Both the position numbers and the translations under genes were made by a program. The notes beneath the pieces are model-generated. The model was given only the letters and a program-made list of their open reading frames with translations, searched no databases and was not told the DNA's origin. This document shows, in pieces, positions 1,586-61,984 of a DNA stretch of 64,000 nucleotides (positions are counted from its first letter, which is position 1; each line of letters starts with the position of its first letter). The stretch comes from a virus. The stretch lies in IMG/VR virus record IMGVR_UViG_3300021181_000008, positions 14,970 to 78,969 of that record. One strand, written 5' to 3'.

Positions 1586-1660
1586 ATGGCTCTTTGGCTG
1601 ATCATCGTGATCATCGTGCTGGCTGTCCTACTGGGCACCTTCCTGATTCGTCACCTCTGA
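1586..1660 (+). CDS. 24-aa single-TM microprotein (MALWLIIVIIVLAVLLGTFLIRHL)
   Basis: GAGGAGG RBS at 1574-1580 and a fully hydrophobic helix. The ORF track shows it only as the tail of a longer ORF. Confidence 0.6.
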   Translation: MALWLIIVIIVLAVLLGTFLIRHL

Positions 1661-1711
1661 AAAGTTTTTAAGGCGGGCTATGCGAACACCGGTTCGTTGT
1701 GCTTTCCTGAA

Positions 1712-1758
1712 ATAGAACCTCCCGTCGAGGCCGTGCGCTGATGCGCTCTGGAGCCGGC
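1712..1758 (+). ncRNA. Putative structured cis-regulatory RNA in the capsid gene leader
   Basis: Aligns with 26842-26885 in the tail-tube leader (CCCGTCG.GG.CGTGCGC-loop-GC.C..GGAGCCGGC) and forms nested stems. Confidence 0.55.
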
Positions 1759-1789
1759 GATCAAGATGCCTCTTGAAGGGATTAACACC

Positions 1790-3241
1790 GTGGCATCGGA
1801 ACTCGCCCAGTCGCTCAACGACACTCGGCTTCGCCTTGCGGAGGAGCTGAAGGGCCTCAACGCAACCGTCGCTGCTGAGAAGCGCAACGTCTTCACCACC
1901 GACGAGAAGATCAAGTACGAGAACCTCCACAACGAGCTGGACTCGGTGGACACCCGCCTGCGCGGGATCCTCGCCGACGAGAAGCGCGACAAGGAGACCT
2001 CCGCAGCGTTCGACGACCTCGGCGGACGGCAGGCGACCAACCTGCGCAGCAAGAGCCAGACCGAGGACCCGTTCACGGAGCGCGCTCGCGCCTTCCTCGA
2101 CCGGGACCGCGCCGACGTTCGCTCGCTGGACATCGGCGACTGGAAGTCCTCGCGACTGGTCAATCGCCTGATCGAGAACCGCTCGACCGGCCCGGCGACC
2201 CAGTTCCCCGGCGGCGGCCTGACTCCGTACGAGTCTCGTGTGCTGTACGACAACTACGTCGGCGGTGGCACCCCTGGATCGTTCACCAACGTCTCCGGTG
2301 CCGGCCTCGTGCCGATCGACTTCTACGACCAGATGATCTCGTACCTCATTGAGGTCTCCGGCCTCATGCAGTGCGGCCCCTCGGTCATCAACTCGCAGGG
2401 TGGAGAGCCCCTCCAGATCCCCTACGTCACCAACCAGACCGGCCAGACCACGGCCGGCGCGCAGGTGAACATCTCCGCTCAGCAGGGTGCGCCGCTTCCG
2501 GGCGCTGACCCCGGCTTCGGGCAGAAGACGCTCTCGTCGAACAAGTTCGGCATCCTCGTCCAGGTCGCTCGCGAGCTGATCGACGACTCCGGCATCAACC
2601 TGCTCCAGTACCTGGCGATGTCGGCCGGGCGCGCGGTGGGCAACATGCTCGGAACCTCGCTGGTCAACGGCACCAACGGAATGTCCGGCGGAATCGTCGC
2701 CGGTACCAACTCCGCTCCGGTGGCCGTGACCGGTGGCCTGTCCAACGTCATCTCGGCGCAGTACAACACGCCGGGCGGCACGGGCATCACCGGTGCTCCG
2801 ACCTACAACAACCTGCTGGACCTTGAGTACAGCATCATCGCCCCGTACCGTCAGTCGCGCTCGTGCTACTGGCTGGCGGCGGACAAGACGCTGGGTCTGC
2901 TTCGCAAGATGGTGGACACCAACGCTCGTCCCGTCTGGGAGCCCTCGACGATCCTCGGGTCGCCGGACCTCCTGCTGGGCAAGCCGCTGGTCGCGGACCC
3001 GTTCATGCCGGCCTACGGGCAGACGGCGGGCACCGGGAACAAGTCCATCGCGTTCGGCGACTTCTCGCAGTACTTCGTGCGCCTCATCGGCGGAGTGCGG
3101 TTCGAGCGGTCGGACGACTTCGCCTTCAACACGGACCTGGTGACCTTCCGTGCCATCGTCCGTGCGGACGGGAACCTGATGAACCCGCCCACCTCGATCA
3201 CCACGCAGCCGCTCCAGCTTTTCCAGGGCGGCGCGAGCTGA
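1790..3241 (+). CDS. Major capsid protein, HK97 fold, with N-terminal coiled-coil delta domain
   Basis: Motifs GAGLVPIDF, KFGILVQVARELIDDS, LLGKPLV, IAFGDFSQYFVR, FNTDLVTFRAIVRADG. GTG start at 1790 follows a GAAGGG SD; the ORF track start is 1766. Confidence 0.96.
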   Translation: MASELAQSLNDTRLRLAEELKGLNATVAAEKRNVFTTDEKIKYENLHNELDSVDTRLRGILADEKRDKETSAAFDDLGGRQATNLRSKSQTEDPFTERARAFLDRDRADVRSLDIGDWKSSRLVNRLIENRSTGPATQFPGGGLTPYESRVLYDNYVGGGTPGSFTNVSGAGLVPIDFYDQMISYLIEVSGLMQCGPSVINSQGGEPLQIPYVTNQTGQTTAGAQVNISAQQGAPLPGADPGFGQKTLSSNKFGILVQVARELIDDSGINLLQYLAMSAGRAVGNMLGTSLVNGTNGMSGGIVAGTNSAPVAVTGGLSNVISAQYNTPGGTGITGAPTYNNLLDLEYSIIAPYRQSRSCYWLAADKTLGLLRKMVDTNARPVWEPSTILGSPDLLLGKPLVADPFMPAYGQTAGTGNKSIAFGDFSQYFVRLIGGVRFERSDDFAFNTDLVTFRAIVRADGNLMNPPTSITTQPLQLFQGGAS

Positions 3242-3255
3242 TCTAGCTCAACCGA

Positions 3256-3294
3256 AGAACGACCGTCATCAGCTATGCTGGTGGCGGTCGTTCT
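3256..3294 (+). terminator. 18-bp stem hairpin after the capsid gene
   Basis: AGAACGACCGTCATCAGC-TAT-GCTGGTGGCGGTCGTTCT. The G-U pairs favour a + strand RNA. Confidence 0.75.
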
Positions 3295-3317
3295 CGTTTC
3301 CGACGAAAGGAATCCCG

Positions 3318-3746
3318 ATGAGTACCGAATGGGCAATCCCGCAGCAGCTCCTCACTGATGCCTCCCTGCCGGCCGGGCCGGCTCCCAACCCGCCGACTGT
3401 GCCCGATCCTTCACCGGGTACGCCAGTCACCAGCGGCACCCAGGACTGGGAGCGTGTGATGTCCCAGCACGCACTCCAGCTCACCACCGCTGATTTCGCC
3501 GGATTCGGCAGCATCAACGTCGTACTCATGGGCTCCCTTGACGGGACGAACTGGTACACGATCCTGACGGCAAATCCCAATGACCTGACCGGTGGCGATC
3601 CGCCTACTGCCACTGACGGAACATTCATGGTCGTCGCTACAGGGATGCCTGCGCGGTACGTTCAGATCGTTGCAACGGCATACTCGTTCAGTTCTTCTGT
3701 CGCATCTGGGACGGTGGTAGCTGCCATCGTCACTGCGCGGGAATAG
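3318..3746 (+). CDS. Hypothetical beta-sandwich protein, possible capsid decoration
   Basis: GAAAGGAA RBS. Motif VVLMGSLDGTNWY...ARYVQIV is typical of small jelly-roll virion proteins. Follows the capsid gene. Confidence 0.6.
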   Translation: MSTEWAIPQQLLTDASLPAGPAPNPPTVPDPSPGTPVTSGTQDWERVMSQHALQLTTADFAGFGSINVVLMGSLDGTNWYTILTANPNDLTGGDPPTATDGTFMVVATGMPARYVQIVATAYSFSSSVASGTVVAAIVTARE

Positions 3747-3763
3747 CGTTAGCTCGGCGCAGC

Positions 3764-3798
3764 CGGAACCCCTATCAGCTAAGCTGGTAGGGGTTCCG
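3764..3798 (+). terminator. Hairpin sharing a 15-nt core with 3256-3294
   Basis: CGGAACCCCTATCAGC-TAA-GCTGGTAGGGGTTCCG. Confidence 0.7.
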
Positions 3799-3816
3799 CC
3801 GTTCCTAGGAGATGAC

Positions 3817-4179
3817 ATGGCACTCACAAGCCTCAATGCGCCCCCGCCCGAGCCCCAGCCGCTCGGTCCCGTCCCGCAGGGCCACCGCCGAGTGATGTTC
3901 CTGAGTCCCTACAACATGTCTGACCTCAACGCGGGCAAGGATGAGGTCCGTGATGTGCCTACTGACCTCGCCCAGCAGTACGTGAGGAACGGCATGGCGA
4001 TGATGTTCGATGACCTGCCGCCTGAGCCCGAGCCTGAGGTAGTCGAGGTCGAGCGACCGGCCATGAACGCACCCAAGGCCGCCTGGGTCGATTACGCCGT
4101 CTCGCAGGGCATGAACAAGCTGGACGCCCAGTGCATGACCAAGGCCGACCTCCAGAACGAGTACAACGAGCGGCTCTAG
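3817..4179 (+). CDS. Small head-associated protein with a C-terminal helical (HeH-like) motif
   Basis: AGGAGA RBS. The C-terminal RP..NAPKAAWVDYAV..G......MTKADL motif is common in actinophage post-capsid genes. Confidence 0.65.
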   Translation: MALTSLNAPPPEPQPLGPVPQGHRRVMFLSPYNMSDLNAGKDEVRDVPTDLAQQYVRNGMAMMFDDLPPEPEPEVVEVERPAMNAPKAAWVDYAVSQGMNKLDAQCMTKADLQNEYNERL

Positions 4180-4904
4180 AAGTCGTCCCAGTACTCGCGG
4201 CGGACGAACTGTAGCCACTGCTCGACGACGCCCTCGTCAGCGACATCGGGCAGTACGCCGGGAATGTCGAACTCGCCCTCGGCCCACTTGAGGTAGTCCA
4301 CGGCCATGTCGAGGTTCCCGGCCGCCACCTCCTCGCCGAACAGGCGGCAGAGCCCTGCCTGACCGTCGCGCAGCCTGACCGTCAGCTTGCCTGTCCGGTG
4401 AAGTTCGACACCCTGCTCCAGCAGTCGCCACAGGTGGCGTGCGTGCTTCTCGGTGCGCTTGCGGGTGTCGGAGCTGAACGAGCCGTCCTCCCTGTTCTTG
4501 ATGCGGCGGAACTGCTGGCTGGCATAGCCGAAGTAGGCATCGCGGACGTACTTCTCCGACAGAAACGTCTTCCGGATGTCGATGAGCATCTCGCCCGCGT
4601 CCTGCGACACCTCGTACTCGTCCAGCCACAGCAGCTCGGTCACCGTGGGATTGCAGTGCAGCAGCAGGCCGGCCAGCTTGCCCGCTTCGTGGTAGGTGAA
4701 GTCGGGGGCGGTGCCGTGCCAGGTGGACGTCTTGACAGTGGGAGGATGCAGCCCGTGAAGCTGGGAAGTGGGCGCGACATAGCACCCGATCCGGTCAATG
4801 TCCGAGGCGGGAGTGGCAAGGCCATAGGCAGTCGAGCCGTTTATGCCACCGAGGATTAGTTCTCCGCGGGGATTGGGGTCTTCGAGAGGAAGCATGCGTG
4901 TCAT
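4176..4904 (-). CDS. Pol-beta superfamily nucleotidyltransferase (RlaP/YcgL-like)
   Basis: GSTAYGLATPASDIDRIG (GS...DxD), NPTVTELLW, YFGYASQQ, KHARHLWRLL. Confidence 0.88.
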   Translation of the reverse strand: MTRMLPLEDPNPRGELILGGINGSTAYGLATPASDIDRIGCYVAPTSQLHGLHPPTVKTSTWHGTAPDFTYHEAGKLAGLLLHCNPTVTELLWLDEYEVSQDAGEMLIDIRKTFLSEKYVRDAYFGYASQQFRRIKNREDGSFSSDTRKRTEKHARHLWRLLEQGVELHRTGKLTVRLRDGQAGLCRLFGEEVAAGNLDMAVDYLKWAEGEFDIPGVLPDVADEGVVEQWLQFVRREYWDDF

Positions 4905-6238: not shown

Positions 6239-6957
6239 GTTTCAAGCTTGGCAGGAACCCCGGCCATGTGCCCAACGGTCTACGCGACCTGACCTGGTAC
6301 GTGGCCGGAGATCTGCCCGCGCCGCCTGTTCGCCGCCCTGTGCCGCCTCCGGGCAACGGCAACTGGGGCATGGACGGCAACGACGTCTACGGTGATTGCG
6401 GCGTCGCGGGCCTCCACCACGGGGACATGTGCGTCGAGTACGACACGGCCACGCCGGTTGTCCCGATCACCTCCGACCAGATCACCCAGTACTACCTGAG
6501 CTACACGGGCGGGCAAGACAACGGCGTGGTCCTCGCGGACTTCCTGGGCTACGTGCAGAAGACCGGCTTCTTCGGCCACTCGGTCGATGCGTACGCGCCG
6601 GTCAGCATCAGCGACATGAAGACGCTCCAGTTCGCCACCAACGCGTACGGCTTCTGCTACACGGGCATCCAGGTGACCGACCTGATGATGAACGCGTCGA
6701 GCGCCGGCCAGCCGTGGACCGCGGACACGTTCGCCAACGGCACCGTCGAGGGCGGCCACTGCGTGCCGATCATCGGCTACGGCACCGACAACCTGTACGT
6801 CGCCACCTGGGGCATGATGCAGGCCATCGAGTACAGCGCCTGGCACCTCATCGCCGAAGAGGCGTGGGCCGTGCTCATGAGCGAAGTGACGGCCAAGGGC
6901 AACCACGGCATCAACCTCGCCGCACTCAAGGCGGACATCTCCAAGCTCAAGGTGTGA
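6223..6957 (+). CDS. Papain-like (C1/C39-type) cysteine peptidase
   Basis: Catalytic Cys in GNDVYGDCGVAG, His in GGHCVPIIGY, then YVATWG. Confidence 0.78.
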   Translation: MASDLSFKLGRNPGHVPNGLRDLTWYVAGDLPAPPVRRPVPPPGNGNWGMDGNDVYGDCGVAGLHHGDMCVEYDTATPVVPITSDQITQYYLSYTGGQDNGVVLADFLGYVQKTGFFGHSVDAYAPVSISDMKTLQFATNAYGFCYTGIQVTDLMMNASSAGQPWTADTFANGTVEGGHCVPIIGYGTDNLYVATWGMMQAIEYSAWHLIAEEAWAVLMSEVTAKGNHGINLAALKADISKLKV

Positions 6958-6960
6958 CCG

Positions 6961-7281
6961 ATGTGGTGGGCAGAGCTGATGACCTGGCTCTACGTGCACT
7001 TCGGCGTCAAGGGCTTCGGGCCTTACTACGGCTTCTGGTCGGGCGCGGGCTCTGACCTGGGCGAGGCGTCTCTCCTGATCGCCATTCTCGCGGCGATGTG
7101 GCACATGTTCCGCGTGCACAACTGCGAAGTTCATCACTGCTGGCGCATCGGCCGTCACAAGACCCTCGTCGGCCACTGCGTCTGCCGCAAGCATCACCCC
7201 GACATGCCCGACAAGCCGCCGACCGCGACGTGCGTTGCCGCAGAGCATGAGAGGGCCAAGGATGCGGCTGATCCTGGTTGA
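6961..7281 (+). CDS. Membrane protein with Cys/His-rich C-terminus
   Basis: Hydrophobic segment followed by HNCEVHHCWRIGRH and CVCRKHHP. Confidence 0.65.
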   Translation: MWWAELMTWLYVHFGVKGFGPYYGFWSGAGSDLGEASLLIAILAAMWHMFRVHNCEVHHCWRIGRHKTLVGHCVCRKHHPDMPDKPPTATCVAAEHERAKDAADPG

Positions 7282-7354
7282 GATCCTGGTACCTTTGATT
7301 CCGATCGTCGCGGGACTCACACTGCTCTGGCTAGCGAAGAGGTATCACTGGTGA
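7262..7354 (+). CDS. 30-aa TM peptide (MRLILVEILVPLIPIVAGLTLLWLAKRYHW)
   Basis: Not in the ORF track. GAGAGGG upstream, and GTGA coupling to the gene at 7351. Confidence 0.5.
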   Translation: MRLILVEILVPLIPIVAGLTLLWLAKRYHW

Positions 7355-8067
7355 TTCACTTCTACCACCTGTGGCTGGGCGGCGACTGGAAGACTATCGC
7401 TGACGAGCATTTCGCTGCCCTGCGCGCGGCCGAGTTTCCCGGCGGCGTTCGCGTAGGGCTCGTCGGCTCTCCGGAAGCGCGCGATGAAGCGCAGAACTGG
7501 CTCGACCGACGCTGGAATTACGGCATCGCGGATGAGGCCGACGAGGGCTTTGAGGAAGTGACCCTGCGCTCTCTGCACGACCTTGCCGGGGCGCTCCAGC
7601 CCAGCACGCCGATCCTCTACGCGCACAACAAGGGCTCGTTCCACCCTGTGAGCAAGGCGGGCATCGACGAGAACACGCCTTGGCGGCAGGAGATGACGCG
7701 CTACTTCGTGGACGCCTGGAGTTCTCGCGTAGCGGAGCTGTCCGGACATGACGTGGTGGCGTGGCACTGGCTCCCGGCCGGAATCATAGGCCCTACCGGC
7801 ATCGCGCTCGACTGCACGGTTCCGGCGGGGAACTTCTGGCTTGCCCGCGCGGGCTACCTCAAGAAGCTGCCGTTGCTGCCGCCGAAGCTGGTCGAGGACA
7901 ACAGGATCGAGGCCGAGACCTGGCTTGCGGAGGGCAACCCGCGCGTGAAGTGCCTAAGCACCGAATGGCCGTCTGTGAGCATTGGCCACTGGGAGTTTCA
8001 GTACGCGATGCCCGGCTTCCCGCACACAGGCCGTTGGGTGCTCATTTCGGATAATCCTGTAGACTGA
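7351..8067 (+). CDS. Putative glycosyltransferase-like protein (LYxHxKG family)
   Basis: ILYAHNKGS, WRQEM, GNFWLARAGYL and R..AETW motifs of a GT-A-like family seen in phage glycosylation clusters. Adjacent to other GTs. Confidence 0.55.
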   Translation: MIHFYHLWLGGDWKTIADEHFAALRAAEFPGGVRVGLVGSPEARDEAQNWLDRRWNYGIADEADEGFEEVTLRSLHDLAGALQPSTPILYAHNKGSFHPVSKAGIDENTPWRQEMTRYFVDAWSSRVAELSGHDVVAWHWLPAGIIGPTGIALDCTVPAGNFWLARAGYLKKLPLLPPKLVEDNRIEAETWLAEGNPRVKCLSTEWPSVSIGHWEFQYAMPGFPHTGRWVLISDNPVD

Positions 8068-13179: not shown

Positions 13180-13739
13180 GGGCAAGCTGGCGCGACACCT
13201 ACCTGGAGATGGCGCGCGTACTGGCCGAGATGCGGGCTGACTGCACCCGGCGCAGGGTCGGCGCGATCGTCTTCGAGCCCGACAGCGGCTACCAGGTGTC
13301 CTCGGGGTACAACGGAGCGCCGCGCGGGATGCCAGGGTGCCTGAGCGACGGAGCGTGCCCGCGCGGCCAGCACTACGAAATCAGGGGCACGATCGTCCAC
13401 AGCACGCGCAACCCTGAGGACATCGGCAAGAAGCGCGGCATGGGCGACTGCATCTGCGGCAACCGGTGGCCGTGCGAGGGCTCTGTCGAGCCCGGCTCCA
13501 GCTACGACACCGGCCCTGGCTCCTGCATCGCCATCCACGCTGAGGCCAACGCCCTGCTGCGGGCCGGCCCCAAGGCGCGGGGCATGGTGATGGTGGTCAC
13601 CGAGAAGCCCTGCGACGGCTGCCTCAAGCTGTGCCGCGGAGCGGGGCTCGACTGCGTGATCTGGCCGTCCGGCAACCTCAATGCTCCCTTCGATTACGAA
13701 CAGTTCCCCAAGCCTCCGATGAGGTCTGTGTTCGACTAG
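13176..13739 (+). CDS. dCMP deaminase
   Basis: CTRRRVGAI, GYNGAP, HAEANAL, PCDGC. GTG start overlaps the upstream stop. Confidence 0.9.
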   Translation: MRASWRDTYLEMARVLAEMRADCTRRRVGAIVFEPDSGYQVSSGYNGAPRGMPGCLSDGACPRGQHYEIRGTIVHSTRNPEDIGKKRGMGDCICGNRWPCEGSVEPGSSYDTGPGSCIAIHAEANALLRAGPKARGMVMVVTEKPCDGCLKLCRGAGLDCVIWPSGNLNAPFDYEQFPKPPMRSVFD

Positions 13740-14610: not shown

Positions 14611-15033
14611 CTACGCGGAAAGCCCGGTACCGTCGAGGGTATCGGGCTTTCGGTGTGTCCGGACACGGTGGCAGCAGGCGCATCGGACGTCGCACTTGTC
14701 CAGCTCGGCGAGCACTGCGGCCCACGGACTGCTCAGCATCTCGGCGATGCCGGAGAGCTTGAGTTCAGGGTCTCTGTGGTCGAAGTCGAGTGCCACGGCG
14801 TGCGCGTTGTAGCCGCAGTCGATGCAGCCCTTCTCCAGCTTGTAGGCGTTGAGCCAGAGGTGCCTCTTGAGTGCCTCGCGCTTGCGATTGGCCACGTTGC
14901 GCGCGTACGCCTTCTGGACAGCCTCAGGTGTGCGACACCTACCACGGTGATTTGGCGGCATACCACAAACGCCGCCGCGAGCCATCGGTTTATCGCACCG
15001 GCTGGCTATAAGGGGGACACCCCTGGCTGTCAC
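14611..15033 (-). CDS. HNH endonuclease (free-standing)
   Basis: CIDCGY...LDFDHRDP...ELDKCDVRCACCHRVRT. Start is GTG 15033 or ATG 14985. Confidence 0.85.
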   Translation of the reverse strand: MTARGVPLIASRCDKPMARGGVCGMPPNHRGRCRTPEAVQKAYARNVANRKREALKRHLWLNAYKLEKGCIDCGYNAHAVALDFDHRDPELKLSGIAEMLSSPWAAVLAELDKCDVRCACCHRVRTHRKPDTLDGTGLSA

Positions 15034-25209: not shown

Positions 25210-25454
25210 GCCGCATCCACAACAAGAACGCGAAGATCCTCTTCTACGGCCCGGAGAGGGAAACATGCCTCGGGCTCATAATCCCCGGCGAGAAGACTGA
25301 GATCGAAGTCTCGGGCCTGAACATGGACTTCTCCGACATCAAGTACTCATCAGGCATGCTCGCGGGACTCAAGGACGCGTCCGGTGAGTTCACCGGCTAT
25401 TTCGATAAGGGTGATTTCGATGGCGAGGATTCTCCTAGTCCATCCGGGGCCTGA
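25206..25454 (+). CDS. Truncated paralog 2 of the tail tube protein
   Basis: MSRIHNKN...LAGLKDASGEFTGYFD versus tail tube MSRIHGRN...VAGLPDASGDFTGFFD. Confidence 0.78.
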   Translation: MSRIHNKNAKILFYGPERETCLGLIIPGEKTEIEVSGLNMDFSDIKYSSGMLAGLKDASGEFTGYFDKGDFDGEDSPSPSGA

Positions 25455-26520
25455 CTTCTCCGTCGCCGACGTGCACAACGGCTGGTACAAGGCGTTCAAG
25501 AAGCTCGGCCACCAGGTGATGGTGTACAACACCAACGAGCGGCTCACGTTCTATGGCAACGCGCTGATGCCGACGAACGATCCCAAGCCCTGCTCGCACG
25601 GCCGGATCGAGACCAAGCAGGCAATGCCCGACCCGCTGCACGTCACCCAGCACGCCACGGCCGGCCTGATGGAGACCTGCTACCTGTTCTGGCCCGATGT
25701 CATCTTCTTCATCAGCGGGTTCTTCCAGAATGCGGCGACGCTCCAGGTGCTGCGAGAGCGCAACCACAAGATCGTTATGCTGCACACCGAGAGCCCGTAC
25801 CAGGATGACGAGCAGATGGTCCGCGGGCAGTTCGCCGACCTCAACCTGCTCAACGACCCGGCGAATATACAGGCGTGGCGCGACCTGGACATCCCGGTGA
25901 AGTACGCGCCGCATTCTTACGACCCGGACGTCCACTATCCGGATGCGCTCGGCCTCAAGAAGGAATCCGACTTCACGTTCATCGGCACGGCATTCAACTC
26001 GCGGCAGAAGTTCTTCCACGAAATGGACTTCACCGGCCTGGAGGTGTCCTTCGGCGGCAACGGCTGGGACCACGTGCTGCCCGAGTACGCCGACATCCTC
26101 AAGTTCCTCCGGCACGAGCCCGACACCTGCGTGGACAACTCCGAGACGGCGCGCATCTATCGCATCAGCAAGACCGGGATCAACTTCTACCGGCGCGAGG
26201 GCGAGGCCGAGCACGTCGGCGAGGGCTGGGCGATGGGACCGCGTGAAGTTGAAATGGCCGCCTGCGGCCTGTTCTTCCTGCGCGACTCGCGCCCCGAGTC
26301 CGACGAGGTGTTCGGCGGCAACCCGGCGCTTGGTATACCTGATGTGCTACCCACGTTCTCCGGCCCTGGTGACGCGGCCGAGAAGATCAAGTGGTGGGTG
26401 GCGCACGACGAGCTGCGGACGAAGTGGGCGGGCATGGCCCGCGACCGCATTTACGACCGCACGTTCAGCTCCTCGGCGCGCAACGCCTGCAAGTGGATGG
26501 AAGAGGCCGGAGTACTGTGA
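25420..26520 (+). CDS. GT-B glycosyltransferase (CgeB-like) inside the tail module
   Basis: ILLVHPG, TESPYQD, PHSYDPDVHYP, DFTFIGT, GINFYR, PREVEMAACG. Confidence 0.88.
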   Translation: MARILLVHPGPDFSVADVHNGWYKAFKKLGHQVMVYNTNERLTFYGNALMPTNDPKPCSHGRIETKQAMPDPLHVTQHATAGLMETCYLFWPDVIFFISGFFQNAATLQVLRERNHKIVMLHTESPYQDDEQMVRGQFADLNLLNDPANIQAWRDLDIPVKYAPHSYDPDVHYPDALGLKKESDFTFIGTAFNSRQKFFHEMDFTGLEVSFGGNGWDHVLPEYADILKFLRHEPDTCVDNSETARIYRISKTGINFYRREGEAEHVGEGWAMGPREVEMAACGLFFLRDSRPESDEVFGGNPALGIPDVLPTFSGPGDAAEKIKWWVAHDELRTKWAGMARDRIYDRTFSSSARNACKWMEEAGVL

Positions 26521-26819
26521 TCTGCCTGCCCTGCCGTAAGGCCGCCGTGATGTGGCGGGTCGGCGTGTGCACCACCGAGGGCTTTCCTCACTCGTCCGGT
26601 GAGCTGATCACCGAATGCGAGCGCGTTGTCCGCCATGAGATCGAGCAGGCGGGCGGGGTTGGCCAGCTTCTGGTCGCCGCCAAGGACGCTCACCAGAAGC
26701 AGGAAGTCAATCGGGGACTGCTCTACCACGTCACCCAGCTTCACGGGCCGGAGTACTGCCCCGGCTACACATGGTGTGATTGCCAGCATCATGTTCTGGA
26801 CAAGCCTCTTTCCCCTTGA
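26517..26819 (+). CDS. Small Cys/His Zn-binding protein
   Basis: MICLPCR...H...CPG..WCDCQH. Confidence 0.6.
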   Translation: MICLPCRKAAVMWRVGVCTTEGFPHSSGELITECERVVRHEIEQAGGVGQLLVAAKDAHQKQEVNRGLLYHVTQLHGPEYCPGYTWCDCQHHVLDKPLSP

Positions 26820-26847
26820 GGTAGCACTCCCTACACTGGGCATAGGA
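26816..26847 (+). promoter_or_regulatory. Late promoter box, copy 2
   Basis: 28/32 identical to 324-355. -10 TACACT at 26832-26837. Confidence 0.65.
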
Positions 26848-26885
26848 CCCCCGTCGTGGTCGTGCGCACAGTGCACGGAGCCGGC
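26842..26885 (+). ncRNA. Putative structured cis-regulatory RNA in the tail tube gene leader
   Basis: Homologous to 1712-1758. Inner stem CGTGCGC-ACA-GTGCACG. Confidence 0.55.
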
Positions 26886-26917
26886 ACAGGAACGAACCCC
26901 GGAAAGGGTGACTGTCC

Positions 26918-27376
26918 GTGTCGCGTATCCATGGCCGTAACGGCATGGTCTACCTCGCTGCAACCGGCCCTGGAGGTGGAGCTGCCTCTGGTACTGCGGT
27001 GGCGTCCCCGCTGGCGTTCGTTAGCGACTGGACCATCAACTTCACCGTCGCCAAGGTCGATGTGACCGCGCTCGGTGACACCAACCTCGTCTGGGTGGCG
27101 GGTCTTCCTGACGCGTCCGGCGACTTCACCGGCTTCTTCGACACCGCGACCGCGCAGACGTACACCGCGTCGGTTGACGGCCTGAGCCGAAACTTCTACC
27201 TGTACCCGTCGCTGCTTGGCGTGCAGGGTGCGTCTCCGGGCCAGTACTTCTTCGGAGCCATCCTCCCCGACTTCAGCACCGCTGGCGGCGTGGCCTCGGC
27301 CGTGACGTTCAAGAGCACGTGGAACGCGGCGACTCAGGTTGCCCGCTACCCGGCTGTCGGTATCGTCGGTACCTGA
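26918..27376 (+). CDS. Major tail (tube) protein
   Basis: WTINFT...VDVTALGD...VAGLPDASGDFTGFFD...FYLYP..YFFG...GGVASAVTF tube-family pattern. Has its own promoter and terminator and precedes the chaperones. Confidence 0.85.
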   Translation: MSRIHGRNGMVYLAATGPGGGAASGTAVASPLAFVSDWTINFTVAKVDVTALGDTNLVWVAGLPDASGDFTGFFDTATAQTYTASVDGLSRNFYLYPSLLGVQGASPGQYFFGAILPDFSTAGGVASAVTFKSTWNAATQVARYPAVGIVGT

Positions 27377-45812: not shown

Positions 45813-45885
45813 CTGGCTAGGCTGGTCTCGATCCAGCGACCTGCGGATTAACAGTCCGCTGCTCTGCCATCTGAGCTACTAGCCA
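45813..45885 (-). tRNA. tRNA-Asn(GTT)
   Basis: Cloverleaf TGGCTAG/CTAGCCA, anticodon arm GCGGA-CTGTTAA-TCCGC, atypical T-loop ATCGAGA. No encoded CCA. Confidence 0.9.
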
Positions 45886-45889
45886 CGGG

Positions 45890-45961
45890 AGACGGTACCC
45901 GGAATCGAACCGGGGTGACGAGGGTTGCAATCTCGGGCCTCAGCCTCTCGGCCATACCGTC
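45890..45961 (-). tRNA. tRNA-Cys(GCA)
   Basis: Acceptor stem GACGGTA/TACCGTC, loop TTGCAAC, T-arm CCCGG-TTCGATT-CCGGG, U discriminator. Confidence 0.9.
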
Positions 45962-45962
45962 G

Positions 45963-46033
45963 AGCGGGTAACAGGGGTCGAACCTGCGTAGCCTGCTTGG
46001 AAGGCAGGTGCCCATCCGTTAGGCCATACCCGC
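45963..46033 (-). tRNA. tRNA-Gly(TCC)
   Basis: Acceptor stem GCGGGTA/TACCCGC, anticodon arm CCTGC-CTTCCAA-GCAGG, T-loop TTCGACC, U discriminator. Confidence 0.92.
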
Positions 46034-55073: not shown

Positions 55074-55478
55074 CTATTCCGCGGCGGCCCATGCCCTCAC
55101 ATTTGAGGCTGTCATCACCTTACTGGCCGCCACCAGCGGGCGGAGACGCAGCTCGTCGAACTCCCAGTCCTCGATCAGGGGGTCGAGCGGCAGCGGGCGG
55201 GGAACTCCCTTGCCCATGGCGTCAGTGACGCCCCTGCGGCCCGTGTGACCCGTCCAGCGGCCATGCCCCCACGCGCAGTCCCTCATGCGCATGCGAGCGG
55301 CGTTGGTGAGCCACGGGGCGAGCGTCCCCTTGCAGTCGTCGTACTTCTCGTACGCCCGCCACATCGCGATCCGGCCCTCCTGCACCAGGTCATCGATCTC
55401 GGCGTCGTGGAAGCCGCCGGGCAGCATATCGGCCGCCGTCCGGTAGAGCCAGTTGTGGTAGTCGTCGAGCTGAATCAC
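55074..55478 (-). CDS. Sigma-70 family protein containing region 2 only
   Basis: DDLVQEGRIAMWRAYEKYDDCKGTLAPWLTNAARMRMRD. No region-4 HTH before the stop. Confidence 0.8.
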   Translation of the reverse strand: MIQLDDYHNWLYRTAADMLPGGFHDAEIDDLVQEGRIAMWRAYEKYDDCKGTLAPWLTNAARMRMRDCAWGHGRWTGHTGRRGVTDAMGKGVPRPLPLDPLIEDWEFDELRLRPLVAASKVMTASNVRAWAAAE

Positions 55479-57796: not shown

Positions 57797-58480
57797 CTAA
57801 AGGTCGATCAGCTCGGCCAGCTCGGTCCACACCAGTTGCTTGTGGGTGAGCGAGCCGTCCGCGTGCAGGAAGCTGCCGTTCTTGAGCATGGGCTCAAGGT
57901 CAGCCCAGTTGTCGCCCTTGGCGTGCAGCATCTCGTGCAGGTCGGGCTTCTTCTTGCCCTGTAGCTCGCTGTGGCTGTAGTACGACTGCGCGAGCATGGA
58001 CAGGCTGTTGCGGTGCCAGTCCTTCTGCCGCCACACGAACACGTTGGGCGCGTCCTCGTAGGGCACGGTGAACGCCCGCGCGTCGAACATGGCAGGGTTC
58101 CGTTGGATGTTGATGCCGAACTGGTTGGGCACCTCGCGGTTGAAGTAGGCGGTGAACGCGCTCGCGGCGATCGACACCACCTTGTTCAGCCGGTAGTCGA
58201 ACCAGCCCTGGGACTCCACGCGGTCGGTGTCCGTGAGCATGAACGTGACCTCATCGGACTGGCAGTAGGCCAGCTTGAAGCCGGGCATGTCCTTCACGAC
58301 GTCCATTGTGGTGTTGATGAACGTGCGGATCAGCCGCGTGTCGAACGGCTTGTCGAGCCCCCGGCACCAGGTGTGGAACGCCCGGCCGTCTACCCGGATG
58401 AACAGCGGCGAGCTGGGCGTCAGCATGTGGTCGGACACCCGCTCGTAGCGCTTGATGCGGTCGCCGAGTGAGTCCTTCAT
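57797..58480 (-). CDS. tRNA(His) guanylyltransferase Thg1-like protein
   Basis: LGDRIKRYE, IRVDGRAFHTW, YCQSDEVT, FDARAF, WRQKDWHRNS. Confidence 0.93.
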   Translation of the reverse strand: MKDSLGDRIKRYERVSDHMLTPSSPLFIRVDGRAFHTWCRGLDKPFDTRLIRTFINTTMDVVKDMPGFKLAYCQSDEVTFMLTDTDRVESQGWFDYRLNKVVSIAASAFTAYFNREVPNQFGINIQRNPAMFDARAFTVPYEDAPNVFVWRQKDWHRNSLSMLAQSYYSHSELQGKKKPDLHEMLHAKGDNWADLEPMLKNGSFLHADGSLTHKQLVWTELAELIDL

Positions 58481-58854
58481 CAGCCGTACTCCGCCAGCAG
58501 CAGGAGCTTCCACGTGCGGTCACCCGTGAACCCGAGGTGGTCGAGCACCTTGTCGCGCATGACCGTCTCGGTGTGGTCCGGCGGGAATAGCTGTCCGGGG
58601 TCCACCTCGGCGGGCATGGTCGGCTTGGCGTCTTCCTTGGACCGCACCAGCAGCAGGGCCAGCCGGTCGCCGTCGTCCTCGCCGTAGTAGCCGTACATGA
58701 AGACCTCGAACGTGCGCTCGTCCTCCCACTCGGTGCCCTTGAGCGCGTCGTAGGACTCCCACGTCTTGTCCTCAAGCGAGTCGTGCAGCTCGTCGTACTC
58801 GCCCTGGTTGAAGTTGACGCCCCACGCGATGATCGCACTGGCAGACGATCCCAT
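58480..58854 (-). CDS. Hypothetical protein
   Basis: GAGGTG RBS and coupled stop. Confidence 0.65.
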   Translation of the reverse strand: MGSSASAIIAWGVNFNQGEYDELHDSLEDKTWESYDALKGTEWEDERTFEVFMYGYYGEDDGDRLALLLVRSKEDAKPTMPAEVDPGQLFPPDHTETVMRDKVLDHLGFTGDRTWKLLLLAEYG

Positions 58855-58978: not shown

Positions 58979-59467
58979 TCAGTACTTCGTCCTTCCTCGC
59001 AGCACCAGCCCGACGAGGGACTTGCTGATCTCCAGGCCGGTGTCGTCGTAGACCCGCTGGGCGATCTCGCCGTGGGTCAGGCCGTCGCCGTGCAGGCCCT
59101 TGATGGTGGCGGCGAGCTGCGGGTTCAGCTTCTCGCGGTGGGCAGACACGCTGGAGCAGTACCACTTCTCGCGCTTGCCCGCGATGGGGCCGCCCGCGTT
59201 CTTGTAGCCAAGCCCACGGCAGATCTCGCTCGACCGGCTCTCGCTGATGCCGAACAGCAGGGCAAGGTCAGCGTGCGACCAGCCTCCGGCGCGGTACTCG
59301 CGCAGCATCTTCACCTGTGCGTTGTCGAGCTTGGCGTTGGGGTTGTCCGGGCCGGCGCGCTCGCTGTTCCGCAGGGCGAGGCCGGGGTTGGTCTGGCCGG
59401 AGGTGTGGTGGCTGCGCGTCTTGAGCGGTCGCCCGCGTCCGGCGGTGGTGTAGTCGTAACCCGCCAT
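58979..59467 (-). CDS. Double helix-turn-helix DNA-binding protein
   Basis: AKLDNAQV...SHADLALLFGISESRSSEICRG and KLNPQLA...THGEIAQ...ISKSLVGLVLRG. Confidence 0.75.
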   Translation of the reverse strand: MAGYDYTTAGRGRPLKTRSHHTSGQTNPGLALRNSERAGPDNPNAKLDNAQVKMLREYRAGGWSHADLALLFGISESRSSEICRGLGYKNAGGPIAGKREKWYCSSVSAHREKLNPQLAATIKGLHGDGLTHGEIAQRVYDDTGLEISKSLVGLVLRGRTKY

Positions 59468-60703: not shown

Positions 60704-61408
60704 CTAGTGGACGCTGTGGACCTTAGAGTACTCGGTCCAGTCGCGCTGCTTCATCTTCATGATGAGCCGGCCGCCGGCTCGGGTGGCGAGGGGAACGTGG
60801 GGCGTGCCGACGACGCCCTCCATCTCGACGGCGGGCCAAGCGGACTTGAGCCCCTCGTGTGTGATGACCTCCCACATGAGGTTAGGCGACACGGTGCCGT
60901 AGTAGGGCACGGTATTGATGCCGAACTCGTTCGCGATCTCCTGCACCGCGTGCGGCTCCAGCCACCACTTGCCGATCTTCACGTCGAACAGGATGAAGCT
61001 GGGGTCACCGTAGTTGCCGCCGCCCTTCTGGATCCCAGCGCCGAAGCCCTCGCCGAACAGCGTGACGGCCACCGCGCTGCCGTCGTTGGGCTCGGCCGGC
61101 CACTTGGAGCCGTAGCGATCGGGTGCGAGCAGGCCCATGTCGGCGATGGCCTCGACCAGGCGGGCCGGGATCTGCGCGTTGTCGGTGCGCCCGCCGAGGG
61201 TGACGGACAGGCCGTCCCAGAACAGGCGGATGTTCGTGCCGTCGATCTTCTCGGTCCAGCGCCACGGCAGGTCGGCGAGGTACGCGAACTCCGGCTGCGA
61301 CCACTCGCCGGGGATGACGGGGTTGCCAGGGATGGACGTGTCGCGCTTGAACGCGCTGTTGATCTTGAGGTAGGCGGGGCCGAAGCCCTCGGACAGTTGG
61401 TTGACCAT
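60704..61408 (-). CDS. ATP-dependent RNA ligase (Rnl2-like)
   Basis: Motif I TEKIDGTN, plus LFGEGFG, FILFDV, EGVVG, KMK. Leaderless TAGTCT-N6-ATG. Confidence 0.9.
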   Translation of the reverse strand: MVNQLSEGFGPAYLKINSAFKRDTSIPGNPVIPGEWSQPEFAYLADLPWRWTEKIDGTNIRLFWDGLSVTLGGRTDNAQIPARLVEAIADMGLLAPDRYGSKWPAEPNDGSAVAVTLFGEGFGAGIQKGGGNYGDPSFILFDVKIGKWWLEPHAVQEIANEFGINTVPYYGTVSPNLMWEVITHEGLKSAWPAVEMEGVVGTPHVPLATRAGGRLIMKMKQRDWTEYSKVHSVH

Positions 61409-61417
61409 CCCGACAGA

Positions 61418-61984
61418 CTACACCGCGGTCGCCGCTGCCTTGGCCGCCATCTGGGTAAGGCACGCCTCGTGAATCAGGTCGAGCTGCTTGCGGCTATCGG
61501 CGGCCACCACGGGATTGCGCATGATGGTCAGCACATTGTCCTGCTTGGTCTCGCCGGACTTGCTCCAGTTGGTGCTGCCGGAGCCGACGTCGAGCCCGTC
61601 GATGATGAACTCCTTGAGGTGCATGATGCCACCGCCGCGACTGCGGCCGAACGCCACCGAGTTGCTCGCCATAAGGCCGAGTTCGAGGAGCTGCTTCTCG
61701 TGCTTGCCCGCCGCCTGCGTGCTGTCCAGGGTGATAGACACGTAGATGTTGGGGTCCTTGAGCTTCTCCATGATGATCTCGGTCAGCTCAGGGTCATCGA
61801 ACCCGTACATAGCGATGACCAGGGAATGCTCGACACTCCATAGCAGTACCTGGAGCGCTGCATCCACCCGGTCATCAGGGGAATAGAACTTAACGTACGC
61901 GTCGGCTGGGTACAGAGGCGGCCAGCCTAGATCCTTACCGCCGCGCTTGAACTTCACTAGGTCGGCTAGGCTTTCGAGTGCCAC
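61418..61984 (-). CDS. Phospholipase D-family nuclease (single HKD)
   Basis: FYSPDD, IAMYGF, MHLKEFIIDG, GSTNWS. Confidence 0.88.
   Translation of the reverse strand: MALESLADLVKFKRGGKDLGWPPLYPADAYVKFYSPDDRVDAALQVLLWSVEHSLVIAMYGFDDPELTEIIMEKLKDPNIYVSITLDSTQAAGKHEKQLLELGLMASNSVAFGRSRGGGIMHLKEFIIDGLDVGSGSTNWSKSGETKQDNVLTIMRNPVVAADSRKQLDLIHEACLTQMAAKAAATAV

Follow-up and report, generated by a model that had tools for sequence, protein, structure and literature searches.

Why should two genes of one uncultured soil phage, those for its major capsid protein and its major tail (tube) protein, be preceded by the same short sequence? The question is raised by a window of 64,000 nucleotides (nt) from IMG/VR virus record IMGVR_UViG_3300021181_000008 (positions 14,970 to 78,969), in which a first, sequence-only reading had noticed similar strings at 1712-1758 and 26842-26885 and taken them for a cis-acting RNA element. 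Comparison with relatives upheld the view that the capsid and tube leaders share a structured cis-element. We are highly confident that it is a real conserved structured RNA, and the sequence comparisons make it a well-supported new RNA family. It may function as an enhancer, a stabilizer or a protein-binding site. The reading that we prefer, held with about even confidence, is that a trans-acting factor recognizes the element as a tag and thereby sets the stability and/or the translation of late structural mRNAs.

Both leader strings were verified on the + strand of the window sequence. The capsid-leader copy ends 31 nt before GTG 1790, with a Shine-Dalgarno (SD) box, AAGGG, at 1777-1781; the tube-leader copy ends 32 nt before GTG 26918, with AAGGG at 26904-26908, as the earlier reading had described. 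The pattern CGTCGNGGNCG-N8-30-GGAGCCGGC matched twice in the window and not once in 100 dinucleotide shuffles, and the 18-nt core of the element occurs only twice in the whole 78,969-base IMG/VR record. Scanned with a covariance model, the window gave only the two leader sites, at 31.1 and 29.0 bits (next match, 17.2). A loose helix descriptor, which yields about 13 chance matches per window, was left out of counting. The two copies and their genes are laid out as follows.

1712..1722, + strand: conserved 5′ flank AUAGAACCUCC of the capsid leader, a predicted single-stranded 5′ tail (leader alignments)
1723..1759, + strand: the element, capsid-leader copy (sequence, centroid fold, covariance models at 31.1 and 34.5 bits, covariation in relatives)
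1723-1727 with 1755-1759: outer helix (H1) of the capsid copy, CGUCG paired with CGGCG
1728-1730 opposite 1752-1754: internal loop of the capsid copy, A1728 G1729 G1730 opposite A1752 G1753 C1754
1731-1733 with 1749-1751: second helix (H2) of the capsid copy, CCG paired with UGG
1735-1738 with 1743-1746: apical hairpin of the capsid copy, GCGC/GCGC with loop UGAU
1790..3241, + strand: major capsid protein gene, HK97 family (Pfam PF05065, 5.8e-48; phrog_10, 1.2e-48)
26842..26852, + strand: matching 5′ flank AUAGGACCCCC of the tube leader
26853..26885, + strand: the element, tube-leader copy (sequence, minimum free energy (MFE) fold, covariance models at 29.0 and 34.8 bits, covariation in the tube set)
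26853-26856 with 26882-26885: H1 of the tube copy, GUCG paired with CGGC
26857-26859 opposite 26879-26881: internal loop of the tube copy, U26857 G26858 G26859 opposite A26879 G26880 C26881
26860-26867 with 26871-26878: continuous 8-bp helix of the tube copy, with loop ACA
26918..27376, + strand: major tail (tube) protein gene (phrog_10528, 6e-6; gene position)

Relatives of both leaders were collected by protein-guided scans of IMG/VR. The capsid scan gave 80 loci, at 46-88% capsid identity, with 52 distinct upstream regions, and 48 of these 52 carry the element, GG-YCR...YRR-AGC, with 31-44 nt between it and the start codon (65 nt in two). With the tube protein we found 59 loci and 38 distinct upstream regions, about 25 of which carry it 32-46 nt before the start codon. 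The consensus consists of a short H1, one to three unpaired nucleotides, GG, a helix opening with CCG and closing with (C/U)GG, then AGC and the 3′ strand of H1. The internal loop, 5′ N-GG and 3′ AGC, is near-invariant; the sequence of H1 varies, as does the apical hairpin between CCG and CGG. The first pairs of the helix adjoining the loop also stay fixed in relatives.

In more distant capsid relatives, the apical part contains another loop that is conserved, CCGU-AGC ... YGG-ACGG. In this extended form, the central 4-bp helix reads GG-NNNN-AGC on either strand, a dyad-symmetric arrangement, and the inner loop of the extended form (UAGC...YGGA) is the flipped version of the common one. A strand-swapped loop, with AGC on the 5′ side and AGG on the 3′ side, was also found in the tube leaders of two relatives of 163 and 181 kb (G003 and G004), where RNAfold favors another register that pairs GCC with GGC.

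L190/L191/L196/L197:1426-1474: swapped loop GGG-AGC-CGUG ... CACG-AGG-CCC in the tube leaders of G003 and G004

Covariation carries the case for structure. In an alignment of 43 capsid sequences (A3), H1 and H2 are paired in 84% of cells, and the covariation score is 0.285, compared with 0.211 in shuffles (none of 500 reaches the observed value) and at most 0.136 with slid partners. Pairs of H1 change on both sides (pair 6-44: CG 23, UA 10, UG 4; pair 7-43: GC 31, UA 3, AU 1), and so do pairs of H2 (pair 11-39: CG 38, UG 3, UA 2; pair 13-37: GC 36, GU 6, AU 1). In the tube set, the third H2 pair (14-36) occurs as GC 7, UA 7, AU 4, UG 2 and GU 1. A third, independent set, of more than 115 loci, came from a search in which only the loops and H2 were prescribed (GGCCGTAGC, 4-34 nt, GGACGGAGC) and H1 was left free; two-sided changes were nevertheless present at all five H1 pairs. 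The GG(C/T)/GCC helix drawn in the sequence-only reading did not survive this analysis: it shows no compensatory change and is broken in 5 of the 43 sequences, and the helix that covaries is CCG/(C/U)GG. Where C changes to U in the proposed GGC/GCC helix, the compensating G-to-A change is found at the position that H2 predicts.

The same data bear on the strand and on the nature of the molecule. G-U pairs are frequent in both the capsid and tube alignments; on the opposite strand or in DNA they would be A-C mismatches, and the structure hence belongs to the sense (+) strand RNA. A transcription start site (TSS) downstream of the element is unlikely, judging from the sequences, because the 5′ strand of the outer helix covaries. 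We give very little credence to the idea that the element works as DNA, either as an imperfect inverted repeat for a dimeric regulator (roadblock or activator) or as part of an unusual promoter for a phage sigma factor. The dyad symmetry of the extended form agrees with such an idea, as do the joint duplication of the element and a promoter-like box at fixed spacing and the presence of phage genes for sigma-70 region-2 and helix-turn-helix (HTH) proteins. Protein operators, however, keep their sequence, whereas here the helices change yet stay complementary, with many G-U pairs that DNA would have to hold as mismatches. The element is, moreover, found on one strand only, always sense to the gene, and it occurs without any promoter.

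The element is also specific to a class of genes. The record of this phage (G000) and two relatives of 115 and 104 kb (G001 and G002), scanned together on both strands (298 kb), contain exactly six covariance-model matches of at least 28 bits, the next reaching 21.4. These six are the capsid and tube leaders of each of the three genomes, so that G001 and G002 carry the element before both genes as this phage does; all six are training-set members, and the informative part of the result is that there are no other strong matches. An unbiased scan of IMG/VR with the extended motif gave 73 matches with a usable downstream open reading frame (ORF) and 7 without. The downstream gene encodes capsid in 60 of the 73, portal in 4, tube in 2 and an unrelated ORF in 7. 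Of the 14 matches with none of these three virion genes downstream, nine were inspected for context, and all nine lie in apparently coding sequence and lack H1 pairing. Homologs are concentrated upstream of capsid and tube genes, with covariation.

Two less selective searches were discarded. Exact matches to the 18-nt core in IMG/VR (69, all single, on either strand) were attributed to chance in GC-rich DNA; only one of them is followed by GGAGCC, and it misfits the element. The short-form pattern CCGAGGCC-N6-30-GGAGCCGG was dropped as unspecific, with 3 of 119 matches preceding tube homologs.

The sequence-only reading had found the element at no other leader that it inspected. The two copies are the only strong matches in the 79-kb contig, but a variant third copy stands at the portal gene, outside the window. 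A TACCTT box and a TAGGAAC flank, similar to those of the capsid and tube leaders, stand before it.

L252:13380-13406 (G000 13380-13406), 1.6 kb before the window: variant portal-leader copy, CCG-A-GG-CUG ... CAG-AGC-CGG, 60 nt upstream of the portal gene (19.9-bit match at L252:13377-13411)

With this copy, and with 4 of the 73 scan matches lying before portal genes, a restriction to the two highest-copy virion proteins proved too narrow. From its distribution, the element marks major virion genes: mostly capsid, then tube, and sometimes portal.

That helices vary while the loop stays fixed, and that the loop recurs flipped, argues that the module is read by something. In the reading that we prefer, it would be a transcribed, sense-strand RNA module in the 5′ leaders of late messages (capsid, tube and, in some phages, portal). 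The N-GG/AGC loop would be the recognition site, and its reader either a protein of the phage or a conserved part of the host, for instance the ribosome or an RNase. Acting with a hairpin over the translation-initiation region (TIR), 3-10 nt downstream, the element would set message lifetime and translation efficiency. We consider possible, but doubtful, a bolder version in which the NGG/AGC loop is a new, orientation-independent module, read by a phage or host factor, that defines a post-transcriptional regulon of major virion genes (capsid, tube and at times portal) in a large clade of uncultured soil actinophages and acts as an ON switch opening the start/SD hairpin.

Several observations weigh against a recognition tag. 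Each copy folded singly is not unusually stable (z of +0.43 and -0.14), and with z-scores so close to 0 the evidence for structure comes from the comparison with relatives, not from folding energy. In most full leaders, forcing the element costs 1-10 kcal/mol relative to the MFE fold. Because these energies disfavor it, the fold may need help from non-canonical loop contacts, from a partner or from co-transcriptional folding. The element is missing from some tube genes (L188, L194 and L213) and from the portal leaders of G001 and G002, so that not every context requires it. Because the portal protein is made in few copies, a simple rationale based on high copy number loses force. A search for the partner, by Pfam scans of 20 early-region proteins, gave no obvious RNA-binding regulator; the scans returned a sigma-70 region-2 protein, an HTH protein, a Thg1-like enzyme, an RNA ligase and a phospholipase D (PLD)-like protein. 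Finally, the RNA-library evidence given below consists of assembled contigs, which may include DNA and carry no depth, strand or ends.

Upstream of the element, the capsid leaders of closer relatives have a TANNNT hexamer at fixed spacing, 23-28 nt before GG, and 24 of 25 distinct tube leaders have a TAC(A/C)CT-type hexamer 20-26 nt before GG. A TTGCAC-like box is often present in relatives 17 nt upstream of the TANNNT hexamer, inside a hairpin loop. The corresponding sites in the window are listed below.

1682..1697, + strand: GCGAAC-ACCG-GUUCGU, a small hairpin upstream of the capsid leader; the hairpin of relatives is larger, with a TTGCAC -35-like box in the loop
1703..1708, + strand: TTTCCT, a putative degenerate or weak -10 hexamer in the TANNNT slot, at 26-nt spacing (relatives); an RNA-library contig crosses it from upstream
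26832..26837, + strand: TACACT, a -10-like (TANNNT) hexamer 26 nt before GG; putative tube promoter, by comparison with relatives

No consensus sigma-70 site was detected near either window copy. From the hexamer, the tube TSS is predicted near 26843-26845; if transcription begins 6-8 nt beyond the hexamer, about 4-10 nt of RNA would precede H1. Distant relatives have no promoter, and in these the element is intercistronic, the upstream gene having its stop codon 25-45 nt before it. An AU-richer box (UGAAY; AUAGAAC and AUAGGAC in this phage) lies 5′ of H1 with or without a promoter; in the leader alignments, the TAGRAC/UGAAY box of the flank AUAGAACCUCC persists in relatives that lack one. An extracytoplasmic function (ECF)-type promoter reading of the UGAAC box was rejected, the spacing to a CGT box varying over 8-14 nt. 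The hairpin that holds the TTGCAC box is itself conserved (for example, GGGGACUGUU-gcacgaagu-AACAGUCCCC) and lies 30-60 nt upstream of the element in L079-L084, L088, L203 and others. The TTGCAC -35-like box occupies the loop of the GGGGACUGUU/AACAGUCCCC hairpin, and the -10-like box follows directly; this hairpin may represent an operator or else a terminator that overlaps a promoter.

A hairpin close to a predicted 5′ end brings up a rather unlikely alternative, namely that the element is a passive 5′ stabilizer or processing module that acts against 5′-end-dependent RNases (RNase E, RNase J) and has no specific partner. The leader of T7 gene 10 (g10-L) and the 5′ untranslated region of E. 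coli ompA are examples of such stabilizing 5′ stem-loops, and also translational enhancers. As with these, the hairpin is predicted here to lie near the mRNA 5′ end, the -10 box at fixed spacing putting H1 about 4-10 nt from the predicted TSS, and the AU-richer conserved box stands directly 5′ of the hairpin even where there is no promoter. Like g10-L, the element belongs to a structured leader before a major capsid gene, in a terminator-closed cassette and with a proposed role in very high virion-protein expression; the strong 3′ hairpin that closes the capsid gene agrees with a stable, monocistronic capsid message, and the genes concerned need high output. Unlike g10-L and ompA, with which it shares no similarity of sequence or fold, it has an invariant loop and is common to two or three genes. 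A generic hairpin needs no invariant loop kept across 46-88% identity and in both orientations, and classical 5′ protection, which depends on 5′-end sensing by RNase E, would call for a shorter tail than the predicted 4-10 nt. The distance to the start codon, held at 31-46 nt, points instead to coupling with the initiation region. Such a loop, invariant across hundreds of phages and at two or three different genes, suggests specific recognition rather than generic protection.

Structure over the TIR begins 3-10 nt after the element.

1765..1797, + strand: capsid TIR hairpin, GAUGCC 1765-1770 paired with GGCAUC 1792-1797 (centroid fold, folds of relatives)
26886..26923, + strand: tube TIR hairpin, CAC(A)GGA 26886-26892 paired with UCCGUG 26915-26920, which includes the start codon (folds)

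The 3′ strand of the capsid TIR stem consists of the last base of the start codon and codons 2-3; the loop holds the SD box AAGGG, and GUG 1790 stands at the edge of the stem. About 20 capsid leaders have a TIR stem of 7-9 bp that changes in step with the first codons; compensatory variants include CAGAAGGCA/UGCCUUCUG, CAGAUGGCA/UGCCAUCUG and GAUGCCAU/AUGGCAUC. In other leaders, the SD box instead pairs with an upstream UUCUCU. The tube SD box at 26904-26908 lies inside its TIR hairpin, and in tube leaders the sequence just after the element pairs with the start codon or the SD box.

This arrangement has a counterpart in phage Mu, where the Com protein acts at the mom mRNA, which has a translation-inhibition stem. 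In both cases, a conserved RNA site lies immediately 5′ of a hairpin that masks a late gene's SD box or start codon, and activation by a bound factor is a plausible model; the two differ in the sequence of the site, which is unrelated, and in the number of target genes (two or three versus one). No Com-like zinc-ribbon gene was found beside the copies, with about 30 of roughly 80 proteins scanned.

A very unlikely alternative is a riboswitch-like translational ON switch, in which the element would be a small aptamer for a metabolite or a protein, and a ligand-stabilized H1 would keep its 3′ strand (H1′) off the TIR and thereby free the start codon. Here the conserved loop is next to H1, as the ligand pocket of a riboswitch is next to P1, and the element is thermodynamically marginal without a partner. 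When the H1 5′ strand is kept from pairing in constrained folds, most close relatives form a duplex between the start region and H1′ with its flank, and tube duplexes between the H1′ flank and the TIR average -8.7 kcal/mol for cognate versus -6.7 for non-cognate combinations. Against shuffles, however, the complementarity is weak (mean z of -0.44 for capsid and -0.89 for tube, from sequences that are not independent), and the H1′/TIR pairing is missing in most distant relatives. The gene context suggests no ligand, and 12 bp with one 3x3 loop would be very small for an aptamer.

At the other end of the capsid gene stands a further hairpin.

3253..3296, + strand: 17-bp hairpin, 12 nt after the capsid stop codon (fold of -40.8 kcal/mol, z of -5.4)

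An equivalent post-capsid hairpin was found in 43 of 56 relatives, and it may serve as a terminator or a 3′ stabilizer closing a capsid cassette. A contig from a soil RNA-Seq library (run X2) spans 1660-3294, joins the leader to the capsid ORF and ends at this hairpin; RNA-library contig coverage extends upstream of the capsid leader. Contigs from four libraries cover the capsid gene, and 3300-4900 and 6600-8000 are mostly uncovered. The capsid gene looks like an insulated monocistronic cassette, the order of which would be a promoter or read-through entry, the leader element, the TIR hairpin, the ORF and a strong 3′ hairpin.

The post-capsid hairpin also bears on antitermination of the put/nut type, in which the nascent hairpin, with or without a phage protein, would let RNA polymerase pass terminators of the late region; we consider this unlikely. 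In common with HK022 put and lambda nut/boxB, there are repeated RNA hairpins soon after the promoters of separate phage units: one copy heads each putative late unit (portal, capsid and tube), right after a promoter-like box. The late region does hold strong hairpins, and the phage encodes a sigma-70 region-2 protein, from which late transcription is probably under phage control. Yet a very strong hairpin typically closes capsid genes just past the stop codon and the RNA-library contig stops there, as if termination were in use instead of being overridden. Antitermination sites do not need a constrained distance to the start codon such as is seen here, and the element also occurs between cistrons without a promoter. 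HK022 put RNAs have two stems and about 70 nt, while the element is a single hairpin of 33-50 nt and does not fit this type.

Cleavage within the element by an RNase III-type enzyme, separating or activating structural messages as at T7 early and late sites or the lambda N leader, is highly improbable in our estimate. A hairpin with an internal loop between late-region genes, intercistronic in distant relatives, has the right placement, and cleavage could relieve the initiation-region structure that follows. The window copies, though, have about 12 bp, as against the 20 bp or so and more of T7-type sites and typical substrates, and an invariant loop sequence is not known for such sites.

The element was also compared with catalogued RNAs. 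The sequence-only reading had recognized no named RNA family in it, and none was found: cmscan of the window against all 4227 families of Rfam 15 gave only three tRNAs at the gathering threshold, and with E up to 10 nothing fell on the element in either leader (1600-1850 and 26750-26980). We define the family of NGG/AGC-loop leader hairpins by an outer helix, a loop N(1-3)GG/AGC, a second helix starting YC/GR, and a location 30-70 nt ahead of a capsid, tube or portal gene, in the sense orientation. Both window copies belong to it and score 29-35 bits with models R1 and R2.

A kink-turn has a 3-nt bulge followed by 5′-GA, opposite a 5′-GA that precedes the C-stem, and forms tandem sheared G-A pairs. 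An L7Ae-type kink-turn was ruled out for the element, in which AG and not GA stands beside the outer helix and the outer and inner loops misfit in either polarity. Likenesses to loop-E/sarcin-ricin and to ops (RfaH) were judged by eye to misfit the consensus. Rfam holds candidate phage cis-regulatory RNA motifs from comparative genomics, such as GP20-a/b and Mu-gpT-DE; like the element, these are conserved structured RNAs by phage head genes, found via covariation, but their fold and sequence differ.

Among actinophages, one published motif for comparison is the start-associated sequence (SAS) of Cluster K mycobacteriophages, a 13-bp GGGATAGGAGCCC found 3-7 bp before the start, in the position of the ribosome-binding site (PMC3203893). 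SAS mark non-structural genes, in 11-19 copies per genome, and the inverted repeats of the extended SAS (ESAS) have no support for RNA pairing (PMC3203893). Both are actinophage-specific, repeated leader motifs upstream of start codons, and the string GGAGCC is common to the two. The element nevertheless falls outside SAS/ESAS: it lies 31-46 nt upstream, at structural genes, in two or three copies, and with compensatory pairing. A 2023 survey of viral structured RNAs, in the portion available, lists five candidates upstream of another capsid family, PHA00201. No description of the element was found in the literature searched.

The element occurs in hundreds of metagenomic phage contigs, at genes whose dosage matters. 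Outside a few model phages, it is poorly understood how a tailed phage obtains the hundreds of capsid and tube subunits needed per virion from operons in which low-copy proteins are encoded as well, and in actinophages the control of capsid and tube dosage is essentially uncharted; a compact RNA of 33-50 nt with a defined loop offers a testable handle. If the loop is read by a factor, a new RNA-protein or RNA-ribosome recognition pair would follow, and possibly a portable expression tag for high-GC hosts. At the least, the family is suitable for Rfam submission.

The remaining observations concern the phage and the neighborhood of the two leaders. The prohead protease gene (385-1575) lies upstream of the capsid gene. 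Sequence comparison places the capsid start at GTG 1790 rather than at the in-frame ATG 1766, because relatives keep the N terminus M/V-A-S-E at that point. The tube gene is directly upstream of two chaperone-sized ORFs and a 1691-aa tape-measure-like gene with a tail-lysozyme domain; adjoining these, 26918-27376 is the place expected for a tube gene.

In a megablast search, only a 231-bp stretch (4431-4661) gave a match, to Streptomyces phage genes annotated as nucleotidyltransferase, and a tblastn comparison of the capsid protein with 50,697 phage records gave identities of at most about 30%. Close cultured relatives are lacking, and none of the phages studied by experiment has the element. 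Distant capsid homologs reside in prophages of Streptomyces, Amycolatopsis, Kribbellaceae and Cryobacterium, and for this reason the host is probably an actinomycete. The element is absent from the capsid leaders of the Streptomyces, Amycolatopsis and Cryobacterium prophages (32-40% identity). Streptomyces prophage loci L232-L237 have a different repeat, GGCAGGGCGACACCCACC, which occurs twice about 60-170 nt upstream of the capsid start; one copy of GGCAGGGCGACACCCACC lies near the end of the upstream gene and the other in the capsid leader.

A sigma-70 region-2 protein is encoded on the - strand at 55074-55478 (4.1e-11), and a weak HTH or sigma region-4-like protein at 58979-59467, also on the - strand. 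The phage may direct its own late transcription, from late promoters that could be specific to it.

A 24-codon ORF, MALWLIIVIIVLAVLLGTFLIRHL (1587-1661), was noted in the gap that separates the protease gene from the capsid leader; its product resembles a single transmembrane helix; a variant of its 3′ end occurs in the run X2 contig. About 23 kb of + strand genes (3300-26800) separate the capsid gene from the tail-tube gene, an unusual insertion for a siphophage structural module, and a glycosyltransferase-like gene (25384-26520, PF13524) lies within this interval. The phage also carries an RNA-repair toolkit, consisting of a Thg1-like 3′-5′ nucleotidyltransferase (6.5e-31), an RNA ligase (3.4e-12), a PLD-like protein and three tRNAs; the toolkit genes cluster at 57797-58513, 60704-61408 and 61418-61984, and the tRNAs lie at 45813-46033, all on the - strand.

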